NCBI GenBank assembly: GCA_001769655.1 | Contig: MEPC01000024.1 | Span: 77,572 to 141,571, forward strand | Reading direction: 5' to 3' | Length of the DNA: 64,000 bases | Source: Bacteroidetes bacterium RIFCSPLOWO2_12_FULL_37_12 | Lineage (GTDB): Bacteria > Bacteroidota > Bacteroidia > 2-12-FULL-37-12 | In this document: positions 31,301 through 50,718 of the stretch, piece by piece | How positions within the stretch are numbered: position 1 is the stretch's first letter | How the letters are laid out: each line of letters opens with the position of its first letter | Position numbers and translations under genes: made by a program | The notes under the pieces: generated by a model | Database searches by the model: none | Told to the model about the DNA's origin: nothing | The model's input: the letters and a program-made list of their open reading frames with translations, nothing else

Positions 31301-33670
31301 AGTTGGGTAAGAGAAATTATAATCTGCCACCGGTCCTGTGATTTTAACAAATTCAACGTAAACGATAGTGTCTGATGAACCCGATGGATTTTTAGCAATC
31401 AAGCTGACCGTATAATTACCGGGATACAAATAAGTATGTTGTGGATTTTTTTCTGAGGAAGATGCCCCATCTCCGAAATTCCAGTTCCAGGAAATAGCTC
31501 CCTCACTTTCATTTATAAAATGCACTTCCCTTGGGGCGCATCCCAATACTACACTGCCTTCATCGGTCGAAAATTCAGCAGTTAAATTTCCAAAAACACC
31601 TCCTAATCCCATCTCTGCTTCACCTAATTTTTTACTGATAACCATTTCACATCCTTTCGAGTTTGTAATTTTAAGAGTTACAATAAATACACCCGGTTGT
31701 GAATAATAGTGAACCGGATTTTTTTCGTTAGAAAAAGTACTATCCCCAAAGTTCCATTCGTAAAGCAAATTTTCTGAAGATGCTACTGTGAACATAACCC
31801 TTTTTGGGTAGGATCCTTCAGCGATCTCAACTTTAAAATCCCCATTAAAAGATTCAAAATACAGCGCATTCACTTTTTCTAATGAATGTTTACATCCGTC
31901 AGAAGATGTTACTTCCAATGAAATAGTATAATATCCGGATTTAGTGTAGGTATGAGAAGGGTTTTTTACATTGGAATACGTACTATCACCAAAATCCCAA
32001 AACCAGGAGACAACATTTTCACTGAGAGAAACAAATTCTGCCGAATAGGGAGGACATTCTGATTTGATATTTACAGTAAAATCAGATTTGATTCCGCTTA
32101 CAAGATACGTGCTGAATTCCGGAATTGTAATGGAACATCCTCCATTCAACGTCATAGTGAGTGACACTGTATAATTACCAGCTATAGGATAAGTGTGAGA
32201 TGGATTAGCGGACTGTGAGGTAGTGCCATCTCCAAAATTCCATAACCAACCGGATACATCCGCTTTAGTATATGATAAATTAATTTGCATGGGAACACAT
32301 CCAGAAGTGACAGGGGGAATCTGATAATCAACATTTCCCGATAACACAACTACCGGATTATTTTGTGTAAACACATCAGCACACCCATTTTCATTTTCTA
32401 CTAATAAGGAAACGGAATAACTTCCGGCATTTGGATAAGTATGTACAGGACTTGTTTCAGAAGAAAAAGATCCGTCACCAAAATCCCAATGATATTTTGT
32501 GCCACCCATACTGGTGTTTGTAAATTGAACTTGTACAGGAAGGCAGGTCTGTATCATGTTTGATTCAAATCCGGCGATGGGTGATGAAGTGACTTTGATA
32601 TAATCGTTTACTATTTCAGTAAACCGGCATCCGTTGCTGTCAGTGACAGTCAGTGACACAGTATAATCACCTGCATTATTGAATGTATGGTTAATTTTAT
32701 AACCCGATATAGTATCCGTGCCACCAAAACTCCAAACCTGATTATTTGTATTGTTGGTATTCGAGCTAAAATTAACACCCAAAGGTTCACAACCGGTTAT
32801 GACATCGGCATAAATTTCCAGTGATAGAGGAGTTGCAATCTCAATTGGTTTTGGAATTTGATTGATTGTACTGCAATTAAATGCATTTGTAACTGTGAGC
32901 GTAGTGAGATAAGTGCCTGATGCCGTAAAATATTTTTCTGGTTTTAGCTCCGTGGATGTAGTGCCGTCTCCAAAATTCCACAGGTAGCTGTTTTCATTTT
33001 CAACTAAAGGACTGAAATTGAATGGCTGTGAAATGTCACATGCACTTAACGGTGAAACTGAAAACCCCGCATCCGGTATAGGATGTATTTCCACTGCTGA
33101 GGATATTTTCTTAAATGAATTGCATCCAAGATTATCAAATACCACAAGGGTAATATCAAATATTCCTGATTTTGAATAGTTATATACCGGTTCTTTCGCA
33201 TTTAACGTATTTCCGTCTCCCATATCCCACAAATAATTTACAGCATTGAGAGAATGATTATGTAAAATGATCTGATTATCATTACTGCAATGCCCATTTA
33301 TTTCAAGAGTAAAATCAGCTATTGGTTTTTCATTTACAATTACCATAGCAAGTTTAATTACAGAATCCTTTATTCCATCCTGACCGATATAGGTAAGAGA
33401 TACACTATATATTCCCGGTTGAAAATAAATATGTACCGGAGAAGGTATATCAGAAGTGGCACCATCTCCGAAGTACCATTTTAATTGAGTAGCGTTGTTT
33501 AGGATATTTGAGAAAGTGACTTTTAGCGGAGCACATCCTTGTGTCACATCGGCTAAGATGAGTGTCTCTGTTTGTGGTTCCTGGCTTTTTGCGGAATTAC
33601 TGAAAACAGTGATTGTTGCAATTAAAACTATAATAGTTTTAAAACGGTTAATGTTAGTAATGGGTCTCAT
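28364..33670 (-). CDS. giant PKD-repeat surface protein with gliding-motility/T9SS type-B C-terminal domain
   Basis: About 19 PKD-type repeats (W.FGDG..S....P.H.Y...G.Y.V.L). The C-terminal about 90 aa (YIPNAFTPDQDGLNDVFKP...VFDRWGKEMFES...GWDGNFNG..VPLGVYTWII) match the T9SS type-B / CHU_C sorting domain. Confidence 0.85.
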   Translation of the reverse strand: MRPITNINRFKTIIVLIATITVFSNSAKSQEPQTETLILADVTQGCAPLKVTFSNILNNATQLKWYFGDGATSDIPSPVHIYFQPGIYSVSLTYIGQDGIKDSVIKLAMVIVNEKPIADFTLEINGHCSNDNQIILHNHSLNAVNYLWDMGDGNTLNAKEPVYNYSKSGIFDITLVVFDNLGCNSFKKISSAVEIHPIPDAGFSVSPLSACDISQPFNFSPLVENENSYLWNFGDGTTSTELKPEKYFTASGTYLTTLTVTNAFNCSTINQIPKPIEIATPLSLEIYADVITGCEPLGVNFSSNTNNTNNQVWSFGGTDTISGYKINHTFNNAGDYTVSLTVTDSNGCRFTEIVNDYIKVTSSPIAGFESNMIQTCLPVQVQFTNTSMGGTKYHWDFGDGSFSSETSPVHTYPNAGSYSVSLLVENENGCADVFTQNNPVVVLSGNVDYQIPPVTSGCVPMQINLSYTKADVSGWLWNFGDGTTSQSANPSHTYPIAGNYTVSLTMTLNGGCSITIPEFSTYLVSGIKSDFTVNIKSECPPYSAEFVSLSENVVSWFWDFGDSTYSNVKNPSHTYTKSGYYTISLEVTSSDGCKHSLEKVNALYFESFNGDFKVEIAEGSYPKRVMFTVASSENLLYEWNFGDSTFSNEKNPVHYYSQPGVFIVTLKITNSKGCEMVISKKLGEAEMGLGGVFGNLTAEFSTDEGSVVLGCAPREVHFINESEGAISWNWNFGDGASSSEKNPQHTYLYPGNYTVSLIAKNPSGSSDTIVYVEFVKITGPVADYNFSYPTLCEINKVAFMIHADTSLSNGSLQYFWDFGDGTNSNEENPVHNFPSSADYQTKLTVTDQNGCLSNKTQVIHTGENYNISATQKSGCKPLVVTFNIPNGVFSEYKWNFGDGKSDTISNPSHLFENTGNNFVSVELTDSNNCKRTIYFKDTIHVFGPTSAFSIQTKSSGCDSLRVVFQNNSTGAENYLWNFGDGFQSSENSPSHIYVKEGKMSVTLIAYGQGCSDTSHLVDAVQIGKPVSSFLADGDKGCLPFPVSFQNTSANCEKYLWNFGDGFFSEEKSPVHIFSAKDTFFVSLIAWSFNGCADTFYLNNPVIVTQPEANFSSQENYNCPPALFNFTDHSNGSEKWEWNFGDGSLSGVKNPSHIYTKSGYYDIQLLISDSSGCTDTLTKPGFIHVQGPVVAFESSLHTSCGPARVDFVNQTTNANSYFWSFGDGNSAKTLNPTSYYTGIGNYLVTLIANDTIIGCSDFYSDTLKIFEVPNADFTNQQVCKKEVQFSYNITNPDSAWEYHWDFGDGATSEEISIFHRYQEYGSYTISLTVETPNGCSDTKTNTIHIEPVKMVEISVENVCEGKKLQFFENVNPDYKNLLVKRYWDFGDGSSSEIINPEHSYMSNGIYPVSLIIESENGCVDTVLKNVTIYSTPDPVILTENFCEDVEVKIKGDAGKDNDEIVKWLWSFQQGNAKSGQSITQIFENAGEYKIKLYTETMHKCVAERETTILIHPTPVADFSTIKQEICGSEEINFENMSQLVDSDTKYFWSFGDGDTSVEKSPVHSYKEQGYYTVTLNVINASGCTNLFVVEKGLNVNPMPEASFILQGEPTSRDPQVELINTGFSYSTSGWDLGDGSYSEETNPLHLYADTGNFLITLRVTGSGGCSDTVSEWVHVKPYSTLYIPNAFTPDQDGLNDVFKPEGNGLIVNYSFKVFDRWGKEMFESNHFDLGWDGNFNGTPVPLGVYTWIISGRTIQQKELLSSGTVTVLR

Positions 33671-33924
33671 GGCAATAAGGGTTTAATGGTGAATCCGAGA
33701 CCCTTTAGTGAAAACACCTTGCCAATGAATCCGTTTTTACAAAAACGTTTTGTAAAATAATAAATCTAATAGTTTGAATTTCAGGTAGTTGTAAACGTTT
33801 TTTATCCGTCTTTGCGAAATAAAAAAATCAAAAGTAAATGTAAAAAATTTCAATAGTTGGGTAATTATTTACCCGGAATGGGTACAACTTTTATGGGTTA
33901 ATTTATTTTTATTAAAAAATTTCA

Positions 33925-33932
33925 TACCTTTG
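33925..33932 (+). promoter_or_regulatory. -7 box TACCTTTG upstream of repeat-containing PD-(D/E)xK gene
   Basis: TAnnTTTG lies 26 nt upstream of the ATG at 33958. Confidence 0.4.
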
Positions 33933-33957
33933 TAAAAATTTTTAATCACTACCTAAC

Positions 33958-34746
33958 ATGAACACAAGCACACATACATCAGAAAAACCAAACTTTGAAA
34001 AAGTTTGGCTAATGTTTCAGGAAACGGATAGAAAGTTTCAGGAAACCGAACGACTTTTAAAAGAAGGTTCTCAGGAAACCGAACGACTTTTAAAAGAAGG
34101 TTCTCGGGAAACCGAACGACTTTTAAAAGAAGGTTCTCGGGAAACCGAACGACTTTTAAAAGAAGGTTCTCAGGAAACCGAACGACTTTTAAAAGAAGGT
34201 TCTCAGGAAACCGAACGGCTTTTAAAAGAAAGTTCTCAGGAAACGGATAGAATTTTAACTGAAAAGTTTCAGGAAACGGATAAACAATTCAAAGCAACCG
34301 ACAAAAAGATAAGGGAGGTGGAAGGATTGTTCACCGGCAAATGGGGACGGCTGATGGAAGCGCTGGTAGAGGGTGATTTGCTGAAATTATTACAGCGAAA
34401 AAACATTAAGGTGGACAAGACATTTACCAGAATTAAATTTACTTACCAGAACAGAAATGGCGAAATTGACATCATTGCCATGAATGGGAACGAAATAGTG
34501 CTTGTAGAAGTGAAAACGACCTTAACTTCTGAAGATGTAAAAGATTTTATTGAAAAAACGTTGGCGATTTACAAAAAGGTTTTTCCAGAATACAAAAACC
34601 GTAAAGTGTATGGCGCTGTTGCCTACCTGAACGCCGAAAGTCATGCAGAATTAAATGCAGAAAGAATGGGATTGTATGTCATCAAAGCCGTAGGAAGTAG
34701 TTCATCCATCATAAATCAGAAACGATTTATACCTAAGGTGTTTTAA
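33958..34746 (+). CDS. protein with six perfect 12-aa (Q/R)ETERLLKEGS repeats followed by a PD-(D/E)xK-like (DUF3782-like) C-terminal domain
   Basis: A 36-bp unit is repeated 6 times at about 34036-34250, with degenerate QETDRKF / QETDKQF flanks. The C-terminus carries a restriction-endonuclease-like core (EIDIIAMNG...VLVEVK). Confidence 0.6.
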   Translation: MNTSTHTSEKPNFEKVWLMFQETDRKFQETERLLKEGSQETERLLKEGSRETERLLKEGSRETERLLKEGSQETERLLKEGSQETERLLKESSQETDRILTEKFQETDKQFKATDKKIREVEGLFTGKWGRLMEALVEGDLLKLLQRKNIKVDKTFTRIKFTYQNRNGEIDIIAMNGNEIVLVEVKTTLTSEDVKDFIEKTLAIYKKVFPEYKNRKVYGAVAYLNAESHAELNAERMGLYVIKAVGSSSSIINQKRFIPKVF

Positions 34747-34780
34747 AGCATCTTTAAAATCTACCATTTTGTTCCTCTAA

Positions 34781-37960: not shown

Positions 37961-38245
37961 GGTTATAAAGGTTAATATTTAATAAAGAAAGGCAAAGCTA
38001 TGTAAAAAAAACGAGATTAAAAAATTATTAATGAAATAATTTGAACTTCGTTTTGTGCCGTAGGCACGATTTAATTTTGTAATGATTGACTTTAGTCCGT
38101 CATTCAAATCTGTTCGTTTTATAACCAGATGTGCCCCTTCCTTCGTCAGGGTAAACTCCGGCACGATTTAATTTAGATTCTCAAATAGGTATCGCTCGTT
38201 ATATGGCACTTCAAACTTCTTCAATAACTCCAGATGCTCTTCTCT

Positions 38246-38505
38246 GAGCGTTTGTTTTTTTTATGTTTCGTTCCTACGGAACTCAACGGTCTTAAGTCAG
38301 GCGTTTCAACAACGGACTGAAGTCCGTTGTTACAATATGAACCGTTCCTACGGAACTTATTTTATAAGGCGTTTTTTCCTGCACAGGCAACCCTTCAATG
38401 GCTTGGAAGAGTCACCGAGTATCGTGCTGGTCAAATAAAATACAGTAATTATTGTTGATTTTTTTTTAATATCCAGGTGGGTGAAAACTTACTGGGATTT
38501 TTTAT
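38246..38505 (+). repeat. about 260-bp highly structured element, copy A (ends in intrinsic terminator)
   Basis: About 90% identical to 38909-39169. Contains nested perfect hairpins (gttcctacggaac twice; caacggactgaagtccgttg) and a terminal hairpin plus T-run. Confidence 0.8.
38471..38503 (+). terminator. Rho-independent terminator (atccaggtgggtgaaaacttactgggat + T7)
   Basis: Stem-loop followed by a T-run. A variant of the motif at 39137 and 41249. Confidence 0.6.
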
Positions 38506-38798
38506 AAGGGCAAATGAAAGGGTTTGGTATTGCAACATTTTAAATCCATGGATTTCAATTTAAAAATATAATTTGCCATTTCCCTCCCAAAACCGTCTAA
38601 ATAGCGTGTATTGATTAAAACATTTTTAACATTTTTATCTCCGTAACAAACCAACAATTCTCCAATATCATCCAAAGTACCATAATCAAAAACTCTTGAA
38701 ATAATATACTCGGCGTTTTTTTCATAGTCCAAATCCCTGAAAGCAACATCCCAGAATGCTTTCTTTGATAACTCAGGTTTATATTTATATTTAAGCAT
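38502..38798 (-). CDS. hypothetical small protein (98 aa) located between the two copies of the structured element
   Basis: Only an ORF. No family recognised. Confidence 0.3.
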   Translation of the reverse strand: MLKYKYKPELSKKAFWDVAFRDLDYEKNAEYIISRVFDYGTLDDIGELLVCYGDKNVKNVLINTRYLDGFGREMANYIFKLKSMDLKCCNTKPFHLPL

Positions 38799-38908: not shown

Positions 38909-39169
38909 TGAGCGTTAGTTTTTTTTATGTTTCGTTCCTACGGAACTCAAGGTTCTGAAGTCAGGCGTTTCAACAACGGACTTCAGTCCGTTGTTACAAA
39001 ATGAACCGTTCCTACGGAACTGATTTTATAAGGCGTTTTTTCCTGCACAGGCAAACCTTCAATGGCTTGGTAGAGTCACCGAGTACCATACTGGTCAAAT
39101 AAAATACAGTAATTATTGTTGGTTCTTTTTCTATATCCCGGTGGGTGAAAACTTACCGGGATGTTTTTT
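38909..39169 (+). repeat. about 260-bp highly structured element, copy B (ends in intrinsic terminator)
   Basis: Direct repeat of 38246-38505. The terminal hairpin atcccggtgggtgaaaacttaccgggat + T7 has a perfect 9-bp stem. Confidence 0.8.
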
Positions 39170-39176: not shown

Positions 39177-39404
39177 TTATGCTACTTTTAATCGGACCAC
39201 TTCCAACTCAGCCCCGTTATTAACCGCTGCGGTTCCTAGTTTAAAAACTTTTTCGGTAATGTTTTCATCCAGATAATATGCGCCGCAAACAGGACAAACC
39301 ATAGCAGGTACTCCCTTGATTACTACTGTACTGTCATTTCTATTAAAAGATACGGTTACCTTTCCTTTGGTTGGGACACCGTGTTTACAATCAATACATT
39401 TCAT
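39177..39404 (-). CDS. YgiT-type zinc-ribbon protein (MqsA-N-like), putative antitoxin partner
   Basis: CIDC...CPVC four-Cys zinc ribbon (MKCIDCKHG...VKGVPAMVCPVCGAYYLDENITEKV). Overlaps the upstream DUF4258 gene by 4 nt. Confidence 0.65.
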   Translation of the reverse strand: MKCIDCKHGVPTKGKVTVSFNRNDSTVVIKGVPAMVCPVCGAYYLDENITEKVFKLGTAAVNNGAELEVVRLKVA

Positions 39405-39697
39405 ATTAGTGTTTTTTTCCTTGTTTTAAAATCAGATTTAAAGGTTGTTTTATCCGGAATATAAACCGTAATTATTATTTTTTTCTTTTCACCGATATCA
39501 TTTGCAACTACAACATGAATGGGTCTATGATTTACCATTTTAAACATTAAACAACTTGGGTAAGGATAATCATCTTTATAATCCTCTATTATTTCTCCAT
39601 GCTCTATCGTTTCAATTATTTCGTTTCTGTTAATGTTTCGTTCCAACATTCTAATAATTGCGTGGTCCTTAAAAACAATAATGCATTTCTCCTTCAT
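39401..39697 (-). CDS. DUF4258-like small protein, putative toxin partner of YgiT zinc-ribbon protein
   Basis: 98 aa in the usual DUF4258 to zinc-ribbon two-gene arrangement with ATGA overlap. No direct functional evidence. Confidence 0.5.
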   Translation of the reverse strand: MKEKCIIVFKDHAIIRMLERNINRNEIIETIEHGEIIEDYKDDYPYPSCLMFKMVNHRPIHVVVANDIGEKKKIIITVYIPDKTTFKSDFKTRKKTLI

Positions 39698-50530: not shown

Positions 50531-50718
50531 AGAAAAAAACATAAAACACAAAACAAGAAATGAAAAATGTATAAGTATGAATGCATTTATGTAAACAGTC
50601 ACAAAAATATAGATAGGGAACCACTTAGTCATTTATTGTTATGTGTTTTATGTTATATGTTAATCATTTTTATTAAACCTGAGTACCGTTGTTGTGATAA
50701 AAATTAATAGATACAATT

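Follow-up and report, generated by a model that had tools for sequence, protein, structure and literature searches.

Does a gene whose 5' half is built of near-identical tandem repeats vary in its number of units, and what would such variation do to the protein that it encodes? These questions are raised by a gene in a 64-kb stretch (the window; all coordinates are window positions unless a contig is named) of contig MEPC01000024.1 from Bacteroidetes bacterium RIFCSPLOWO2_12_FULL_37_12. The gene is a complete 262-amino-acid (aa) open reading frame (ORF; 33958-34746, + strand), and the identical protein is encoded on five independent metagenome contigs from four samples. We report that the repeat occurs in two lengths on one genetic background, and that the gene product is probably a cytoplasmic, stand-alone PD-(D/E)xK endonuclease of the DUF8196 family, with a coiled-coil stalk in which the number of units is labile by whole repeats.

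A first-pass annotation made from the nucleotide sequence had described six perfect 36-bp repeats encoding (Q/R)ETERLLKEGS. A tandem repeat in the 5' half of the ORF is borne out both by Tandem Repeats Finder (34030-34277, 7.5 copies, 93% matches, score 389) and by a repeat search that returned eight in-register copies at 33-nucleotide (nt) spacing. Read codon by codon, however, the period is 33 nt and not 36, with 11 codons (QETERLLKEGS) per unit, and the repeats, although real, are not perfect: five units, beginning at 34039, 34072, 34105, 34138, and 34171, are identical except for a CAG/CGG exchange, and the sixth (34204) has two more substitutions, one silent (CGA>CGG) and one changing G to S (GGT>AGT). 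The Q/R variation was correctly traced to a single base, but it lies at the second codon position, where it is nonsynonymous, and not at a wobble position. The degenerate QETDRKF and QETDKQF units beside the array and the C-terminal motif EIDIIAMNGNEIVLVEVK are present as described.

A 229-aa protein (P0001) equals the window protein minus exactly three units; four contigs, which come from three samples, encode it amid the same neighboring genes as in the window. Alignment of the 3-unit and 6-unit alleles over 671 nt gives a clean 99-nt gap and is otherwise identical, with the missing 99 nt falling in the 34039-34203 tract. Over 10.6 kb of flanks, L001, a contig with the 3-unit allele, departs from the window sequence at a single site, position 32701, within the gene for a 1768-aa adhesin; this is A in the window and in L007, and C in L001 and in L004 to L006. 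The variant is thus common to a 3-unit contig (L001) and to 6-unit contigs (L004 to L006), and because the flanks are identical apart from this lone single-nucleotide polymorphism, both lengths are present on one genetic background. The order of the units is Q,Q,R,R,Q,S in the 6-unit allele and Q,Q,S in the 3-unit allele, and the simplest history for these orders is one deletion of 99 nt, with direct repeats at its ends, by which the 6-unit allele would have given rise to the 3-unit allele. Further alleles were sought in JGI metagenome contigs: an exact 42-nt scan found none, and a protein-based scan returned only a 74%-identical ortholog and distant relatives.

Unit number is also variable beyond this strain. 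Members of this large family fall into 4,852 clusters at 50% identity under a cutoff of E<=1e-3, of which 2,869 also pass E<=1e-10. They are patchily distributed among Bacteroidota, Leptospiraceae, Thiosymbion and other Gammaproteobacteria, Bdellovibrionales, Spirochaetia, Thermoanaerobaculia, Chlorobiota, Ignavibacteria, and the archaeon Methanospirillum; some genomes have many paralogs or tandem arrays, and most have none. Among 80 relatives taken from species-representative genomes, 69 have nucleotide-level tandem arrays in the stalk region, with periods of 21, 33, 42, 54, 63, and 75 nt, plus one each of 87 and 96 nt, all of which are combinations of 21 and 33; the window array has the highest score among them. 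The closest orthologs, P0002 and the 221-aa product of a gene on contig L088, have the same N-terminal head as the window protein and a nuclease domain that is ~96-97% identical, and their stalks have no QETERLLKEGS units, with QETxRKF and QESERILTEKF units alternating instead. The earlier proposals of recent expansion and copy-number variation are therefore well founded, given the 229-aa form on identical flanks and the absence of the unit from so close a relative; the unit number varies between alleles, between orthologs, and between paralogs, contrary to the invariant count that the annotation had named as refuting it.

The paralogs are found in head-to-tail arrays of seven copies in 6.6 kb (L051 127-6660, from a gammaproteobacterial metagenome-assembled genome [MAG]), four copies in L083 and L052, and three in L072 and L059. 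Tandem paralogs differ mainly in their number of stalk heptads and hendecads, and their nuclease domains are nearly identical (proportion of synonymous differences [pS], 0.01-0.24); in L083, for example, pS is 0.012 and the lengths are 340, 296, 317, and 290 aa. Where divergence suffices for judging, the ratio of nonsynonymous to synonymous differences (pN/pS) in these nuclease domains is 0.02-0.12, a signature that shows them to be under apparent purifying selection. In the alleles and the paralog arrays taken together, stalk length is seen to change more quickly than synonymous sites do, with the nuclease domain under constraint, and the changes in unit number are in frame, in register, and on very short time scales. 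A phase-variable ON/OFF contingency locus was considered and ruled out, as each allele keeps the frame and encodes a full-length protein, and frameshift phase variation is rejected because all of the repeat periods in the family are multiples of 3 (the window unit of 33 nt being 3 x 11). There is no paralog of the gene within the window itself. Decayed copies are seen beside intact ones (L060 4413-5119 and L061 10293-10751), one in a Methanospirillum MAG that is split into 139-aa and 42-aa fragments, and one in a Bdellovibrionales MAG with an in-frame stop in the nuclease domain.

What the variable stalk carries can be predicted with some assurance. An AlphaFold2 (AF2) model of the monomer, built from a 121-sequence alignment, has a mean predicted local distance difference test (pLDDT) score of 84.8, rising to 86-97 over aa 130-262, and the modeled C-terminal domain has the topology H-EEE-H-E-H-E. 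All leading Foldseek matches in the PDB are PD-(D/E)xK nucleases (probability 1.00, ranks 1-22), including Cdn1 (3.4e-4), EndoMS/NucS, Can2, Card1, AF1548, VC1899, R2 endonuclease, Bax1, and Hjc. Pfam matches are weak and mutually consistent (UPF0102, NERD, PDDEXK_10, DUF234, DUF4143, Hjc, and NucS_C), the best PADLOC match is to the CARF_PDDEXK nuclease domain (4e-9), and a sequence search against solved structures returned only Can2 (8bao, E=0.5). E134, E169, E184, and K186 are invariant in the 121 homologs and D171 is at least 90% conserved, and E134/D171/E184-x-K186 form the canonical layout of a motif I glutamate, a motif II aspartate, and a motif III ExK. We therefore confidently predict that the C-terminal 137 residues form a restriction-endonuclease-like alpha/beta core fold with an intact E...D...ExK site for metal binding and catalysis, conserved throughout the family. 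The PD-(D/E)xK-like domain proposed in the first-pass annotation, which had named a lack of nuclease-fold similarity as the outcome that would count against it, is upheld by these structural and profile matches and conserved residues; the assignment stands for the fold and the active site, and nuclease activity is predicted from them.

The N-terminal ~110 residues are modeled as an amphipathic helix made of a string of 7- and 11-residue units. In the AF2 model aa 13-124 are one unbroken helix, which breaks at aa 125, within the nearly invariant LFTGxWG hinge (L124, F125, T126, and W129 are nearly invariant among the homologs and G130 is invariant); the helix starts at a head motif that reads F-E/D-x-V/I-W-x-M/L-F in relatives. 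Units of these two lengths, heptads and hendecads, represent the classical periods of coiled coils. In 197 family proteins, ET[D/E] motifs are spaced by 7 residues in 383 of 668 intervals and by 11 in 184, and almost all of the rest are sums of 7 and 11. Hydrophobicity along the window stalk has a single sharp periodicity peak at 3.64 residues, close to 11/3, and the hendecad register places F or S at a, T at d, and I/L-L at g/h. Stalks in the family, measured between the start and the xWG hinge, are 17 to 233 residues long (median, 75), and the window protein, at 127, is near the top.

We infer from these features that the stalk self-associates as a dimer or a trimer. The helices would then run parallel in a coiled-coil stalk and hold two or three nuclease domains close to one another; in dimeric PD-(D/E)xK nucleases, paired domains are needed for cutting both strands. 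The number of 33-nt repeats would presumably rise and fall through slipped-strand mispairing or unequal recombination, and only whole units would be tolerated, such that each change alters stalk length alone and keeps frame and register. Such changes would stay in register because 7 and 11 residues make whole turns in a coiled coil (two and three, respectively), and the step in length would be ~16.5 Å per hendecad, or ~5 nm between the two alleles.

Several points weigh against a self-associating nuclease with a stalk of variable length. The contigs with either allele all derive from short-read assemblies, those from ENA being MEGAHIT k141 assemblies; the stalk is 23% hydrophobic and 47% charged with G-S in every main unit, so that a canonical tight coiled coil is not guaranteed; trimers have been demonstrated by Hartmann only for nonad-type relatives and not for the heptad/hendecad bacterial forms (PMC4786415); and a nuclease that is constitutively assembled would, in the absence of an inhibitor gene close by, need intrinsic specificity or regulation. 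The short-read origin raises the prospect that 3 versus 6 units is an assembly artifact, one true allele having been collapsed or expanded by a de Bruijn assembler; identical flanks on both forms are expected from such a single-strain artifact, and it can be reasoned from the unit order that for k of up to ~79 all k-mers of the 3-unit path also lie within the 6-unit sequence. At k=141, however, every k-mer in either path is unique; the units of the 6-unit allele follow no period (Q,Q,R,R,Q,S), and the 3-unit tract is only 99 nt. Moreover, each form recurs exactly in four to five independent assemblies from several samples, with no intermediate counts, and like differences in unit number occur between orthologs and between paralogs in chromosome-scale and contig_N-style MAG assemblies. 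Because of the unique k-mers, the exact recurrence, and the lack of intermediates, we regard assembly collapse as quite unlikely. The composition of the stalk bears on a different alternative, that the N-terminal helix does not self-associate and is either a rigid single alpha-helix (SAH) spacer or an 11/3 surface-binding (e.g., membrane) amphipathic helix like the 11-mers of apolipoproteins, LEA proteins, and synuclein, fixing how far one tethered nuclease domain lies from the N-terminal head. The 18 i/i+4 opposite-charge pairs in 112 residues, the 11-mer repeat itself, weak compositional matches to ApoLp-III and ApoO, and the stability of the helix in the AF2 monomer are all compatible with it. 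Nevertheless, a strictly conserved hydrophobic stripe follows the sharp 3.64-residue periodicity along the stalk, most relatives have heptads with a conserved F, as coiled coils typically do and SAH domains do not, related stalks have been crystallized as trimeric coiled coils (PMC4786415), and neither membrane nor secretion signals are present in the window protein. We retain this as a minority alternative because of the low hydrophobicity and high charge, and consider it unlikely.

As to the role of the nuclease, the prediction leans towards a conflict-type or structure-specific nuclease over a core repair or housekeeping enzyme, because the gene is solo, forms paralog arrays, is patchily distributed, has nonsyntenic orthologs, and is found in no phages or plasmids. 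An enzyme of host DNA metabolism, a structure-specific repair or recombination nuclease analogous to Hjc, NucS, or YraN in which stalk-length variation is neutral noise, would fit with the presence of Hjc, NucS/EndoMS, YraN/UPF0102, and Bax1 among the nearest sequence and structure neighbors, with a chromosomal gene that has no relatives in 50,697 phage genomes, 72,556 plasmids, and 2.9 M IMG/VR viral contigs, and with the absence of an inhibitor or immunity partner from the neighborhoods of 80 loci. We think it improbable all the same, as the spread over multiple phyla is patchy (many paralogs and tandem arrays are seen in certain genomes, but most have none), genomic position is not kept even between close orthologs, and scores fall below curated repair-family thresholds (NucS, 14.4 versus 24 bits; YraN equivalog, 26.7 versus 109). 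A more speculative proposal, to which we give still less credence, is that stalk length is a selected and rapidly tuned parameter of a chromosomal single-gene conflict or defense nuclease, serving either as a ruler from an N-terminal anchoring head that sets reach or cleavage distance, or in escape from an inhibitor, with the alleles and the arrays (up to seven copies) forming a length repertoire. If this were true, populations (3- versus 6-unit) and tandem arrays would maintain a repertoire of stalk lengths. The remaining alternative is a functional link to the flanking type IX secretion system (T9SS) adhesins, as an extracellular or biofilm nuclease or an adhesin regulator, which the position of the gene would suggest. 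The first-pass annotation had placed the gene between two giant T9SS adhesin genes, and both flanking ORFs are indeed T9SS cargo: the 1768-aa ORF has a TIGR04131 type B sorting domain (47.6 bits versus a cutoff of 35) and the 1059-aa ORF a TIGR04183 type A sorting domain (35.9 bits versus a cutoff of 23). But the gene is on the strand opposite to both, with its own promoter-like box, and its product has neither a signal peptide nor a T9SS C-terminal domain. In addition, the L088 ortholog is flanked by genes for an oxidoreductase subunit and an MBL-fold hydrolase, and its homology to the window (L088 1459-2170 versus window 33916-34750, 87-93% nt identity) covers the ORF and only 42 nt upstream and 4 nt downstream. 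Pfam families are seen at most twice each among the 132 immediate neighbors at the 80 loci. The lack of a conserved neighborhood effectively refutes an adhesin link, which we consider extremely improbable; because the L088 flanks are unrelated and neighbors are not conserved, the gene is best seen as a self-contained unit with incidental T9SS neighbors.

The two alleles, three hendecads apart in otherwise identical DNA, are a natural experiment, and variation in stalk length within a large family with a conserved catalytic site invites comparison of oligomeric state, activity, and cleavage geometry. The natural series of heptad and hendecad stalks should also be of use to coiled-coil researchers. 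The features on which this description is based are collected in Table 1.

Table 1. Features of the stalk-nuclease gene and its upstream region, in window coordinates
Feature	Position	Strand	Basis or remark
Putative Bacteroidota-type -7 promoter box TACCTTTG	33925..33932	+	26 nt before ATG; identified by eye
Probable coiled-coil-stalk PD-(D/E)xK nuclease ORF, 262 aa	33958..34746	+	Complete ORF
N-terminal head motif FEKVWLMF, aa 13-20, start of long helix	33994..34017	+	Conserved; AF2 helix from aa 13
Heptad unit QETDRKF, 21 nt	34018..34038	+	Unit read by codons
Five 33-nt units (Q/R)ETERLLKEGS, order Q,Q,R,R,Q	34039..34203	+	Differ only by CAG/CGG in codon 1
Sixth unit QETERLLKESS	34204..34236	+	Two substitutions relative to the Q unit
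Two degenerate hendecads, QETDRILTEKF (34237) and QETDKQFKATD (34270)	34237..34302	+	Older unit types, common to relatives
Hinge LFTGKWG, aa 124-130	34327..34347	+	Joins stalk helix to first nuclease-domain helix
Predicted PD-(D/E)xK nuclease domain, aa 126-262	34333..34743	+	pLDDT 86-97; Foldseek, Pfam, and PADLOC matches
E134, motif I glutamate, helix alpha-1	34357..34359	+	Invariant in 121 sequences
D171, motif II aspartate, in EIDII	34468..34470	+	At least 90% conserved; adjacent E169 invariant
E184-V-K186, motif III ExK	34507..34515	+	E184 and K186 invariant

The Bacteroidota-type -7 box has the consensus TAnnTTTG, and a box of this type lies in the 42 nt of upstream sequence that are conserved with L088; box and leader are kept in the L088 ortholog (TTACCTTTG), with 93% nt identity over window 33916-34046. 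A sigma-70 promoter scan around the gene gave no signal over shuffled background, and a noncoding RNA scan of the same region found nothing at gathering score. A perfect palindrome with a 9-bp stem, CCAAACTTTGAAAAAGTTTGG, is located at 33988-34008 within the codons of the conserved PNFEKVW motif, and may be a simple by-product of codon usage. We note also a 38-nt likeness between L088 1404-1441 and window 50538-50575, which was judged to be chance because both stretches are AT-rich.

The broader neighborhoods show no conserved neighboring gene either. Clusters of nonfamily ORFs recur in at most 9 of the 80 loci, and PADLOC run on the 132 immediate neighbors finds each defense family at most once, apart from generic AAA matches. 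An association with defense islands was considered and is unsupported, the PADLOC matches among these neighbors being single occurrences. Elsewhere in the window, a DUF6922 gene of 98 aa (38502-38798, - strand) is flanked on both sides by an ~260-nt direct repeat, 92% identical between its copies (38245-38503 and 38909-39168). Hairpins are present in both copies (GTTCCTACGGAAC and CAACAACGGACT...AGTCCGTTGTTAC), and the only Rfam match is sub-threshold (Acido-Lenti-1, 27.6 bits versus 37, at 38310-38357). At 39177-39697 on the - strand, a 75-aa ORF and a 98-aa DUF4258 ORF overlap by 4 nt in what looks like a toxin-antitoxin arrangement.

Among known systems, the gene product is a member of a known and functionally uncharacterized kind of coiled-coil endonuclease (DUF3782, DUF1626/PDDEXK_10/COG5493, and now DUF8196). 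The DUF3782 and DUF1626 (PDDEXK_10, COG5493) endonucleases have the same repetitive stalk and C-terminal PD-(D/E)xK domain (PMC1913061, PMC3424549, PMC4786415), and likewise have a patchy prokaryotic distribution, no assigned function, and, in some members, near-perfect stalk repeats, as in Tcar0761 with its 14 nonads. N-terminal coiled coils were described on DUF1626/COG5493 nucleases by Knizewski in 2007 (PMC1913061), and Hartmann reported in 2016 that the stalks of bacterial members are coiled coils without the archaeal nonads (PMC4786415); with the architecture already described in 2007 and 2016, the present data leave the classification unchanged. The near-isogenic 3- versus 6-unit alleles and the paralog arrays that differ in stalk length appear to be unreported in the literature searched.

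There are differences from these relatives, too. The window protein keeps the canonical ExK lysine, at a position that is often T in DUF1626, and its stalk consists of heptads and hendecads, whereas the archaeal DUF3782/DUF1626-type forms have nonads and beta-layers. It does not reach the PF07788 (DUF1626, COG5493) threshold of 21.2 bits, the full protein scoring 19.1 and the domain alone 20.9 over profile positions 4-73 of 74, and scores this close to the threshold give it the look of a sister family. PF12644 (DUF3782; threshold 24.4 bits) has no match at E<=10 in the N-terminal 130 aa and none at E<=1 in the full protein, and M. hungatei homologs that are named DUF3782 in UniRef score 12.5 bits on it. 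The first-pass comparison with DUF3782-type architecture nevertheless agrees with the published description (PMC4786415) and with the UniRef name of a 44%-identical homolog, although not with the PF12644 profile itself; the helix of aa 13-124 followed by the nuclease domain, and the 7/11 periodicity, are in keeping with it. For Pfam DUF8196 (PF26618), the precomputed match on the window protein is flagged as weak and the family is listed for most of the homologs; DUF8196 has no assigned function. The earlier statement that no function is established still holds.

By structure (Foldseek ranks 1 and 3-10) and by profile (the PADLOC CARF_PDDEXK match), the nearest nuclease domains are those of Can2, Card1, and Cdn1, ancillary effectors of type III CRISPR systems that are dimers with nuclease domains paired by an N-terminal module. 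The window protein differs from them in having no CARF domain and a single long helix as its N-terminal half, and the PADLOC CARF alignments span only the linker and nuclease (e.g., profile positions 223-332 of 410). There is no recurrent CRISPR association in the neighborhoods examined, with one Csx1-type gene among the 132 neighbors, and the anti-phage defense models of PADLOC 2.0 give domain-level matches and no full-length match. NucS/EndoMS, Hjc, and YraN (UPF0102) share the minimal PD-(D/E)xK core and motif order with the window protein and are weakly matched by profile and by Foldseek. The N-terminal DNA-binding and dimerization domain of NucS is absent, and the NucS models are not reached (NF002876, 14.4 versus 252 bits, alongside the NucS_C score given above). 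UPF0102 gives the sole score above a cutoff, at 23.9-25.0 bits against a Pfam threshold of 23.6, but over profile positions 15-45 of 80 only, and the YraN score quoted above is for the best NCBIfam equivalog. For Hjc (PF01870, threshold 21.1 bits) the window protein scores 15.8-17.4 and homolog P0005 passes with 27.3; that some homologs pass indicates similarity at the superfamily level.

The closest parallels for the behavior of the stalk come from quite different proteins. In trimeric autotransporter adhesins, streptococcal M proteins, and the hendecad coiled coils of Scy and FilP, in-frame repeats likewise change stalk length in register. Weak matches of the window protein to Scy and DivIVA are also found (precomputed PF28068; Scy, 26 bits versus a cutoff of 1040), and the Scy match reflects only periodicity and composition. 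The adhesins, M proteins, and Scy are surface or cytoskeletal proteins, whereas the stalk encoded in the window carries a predicted intracellular nuclease.

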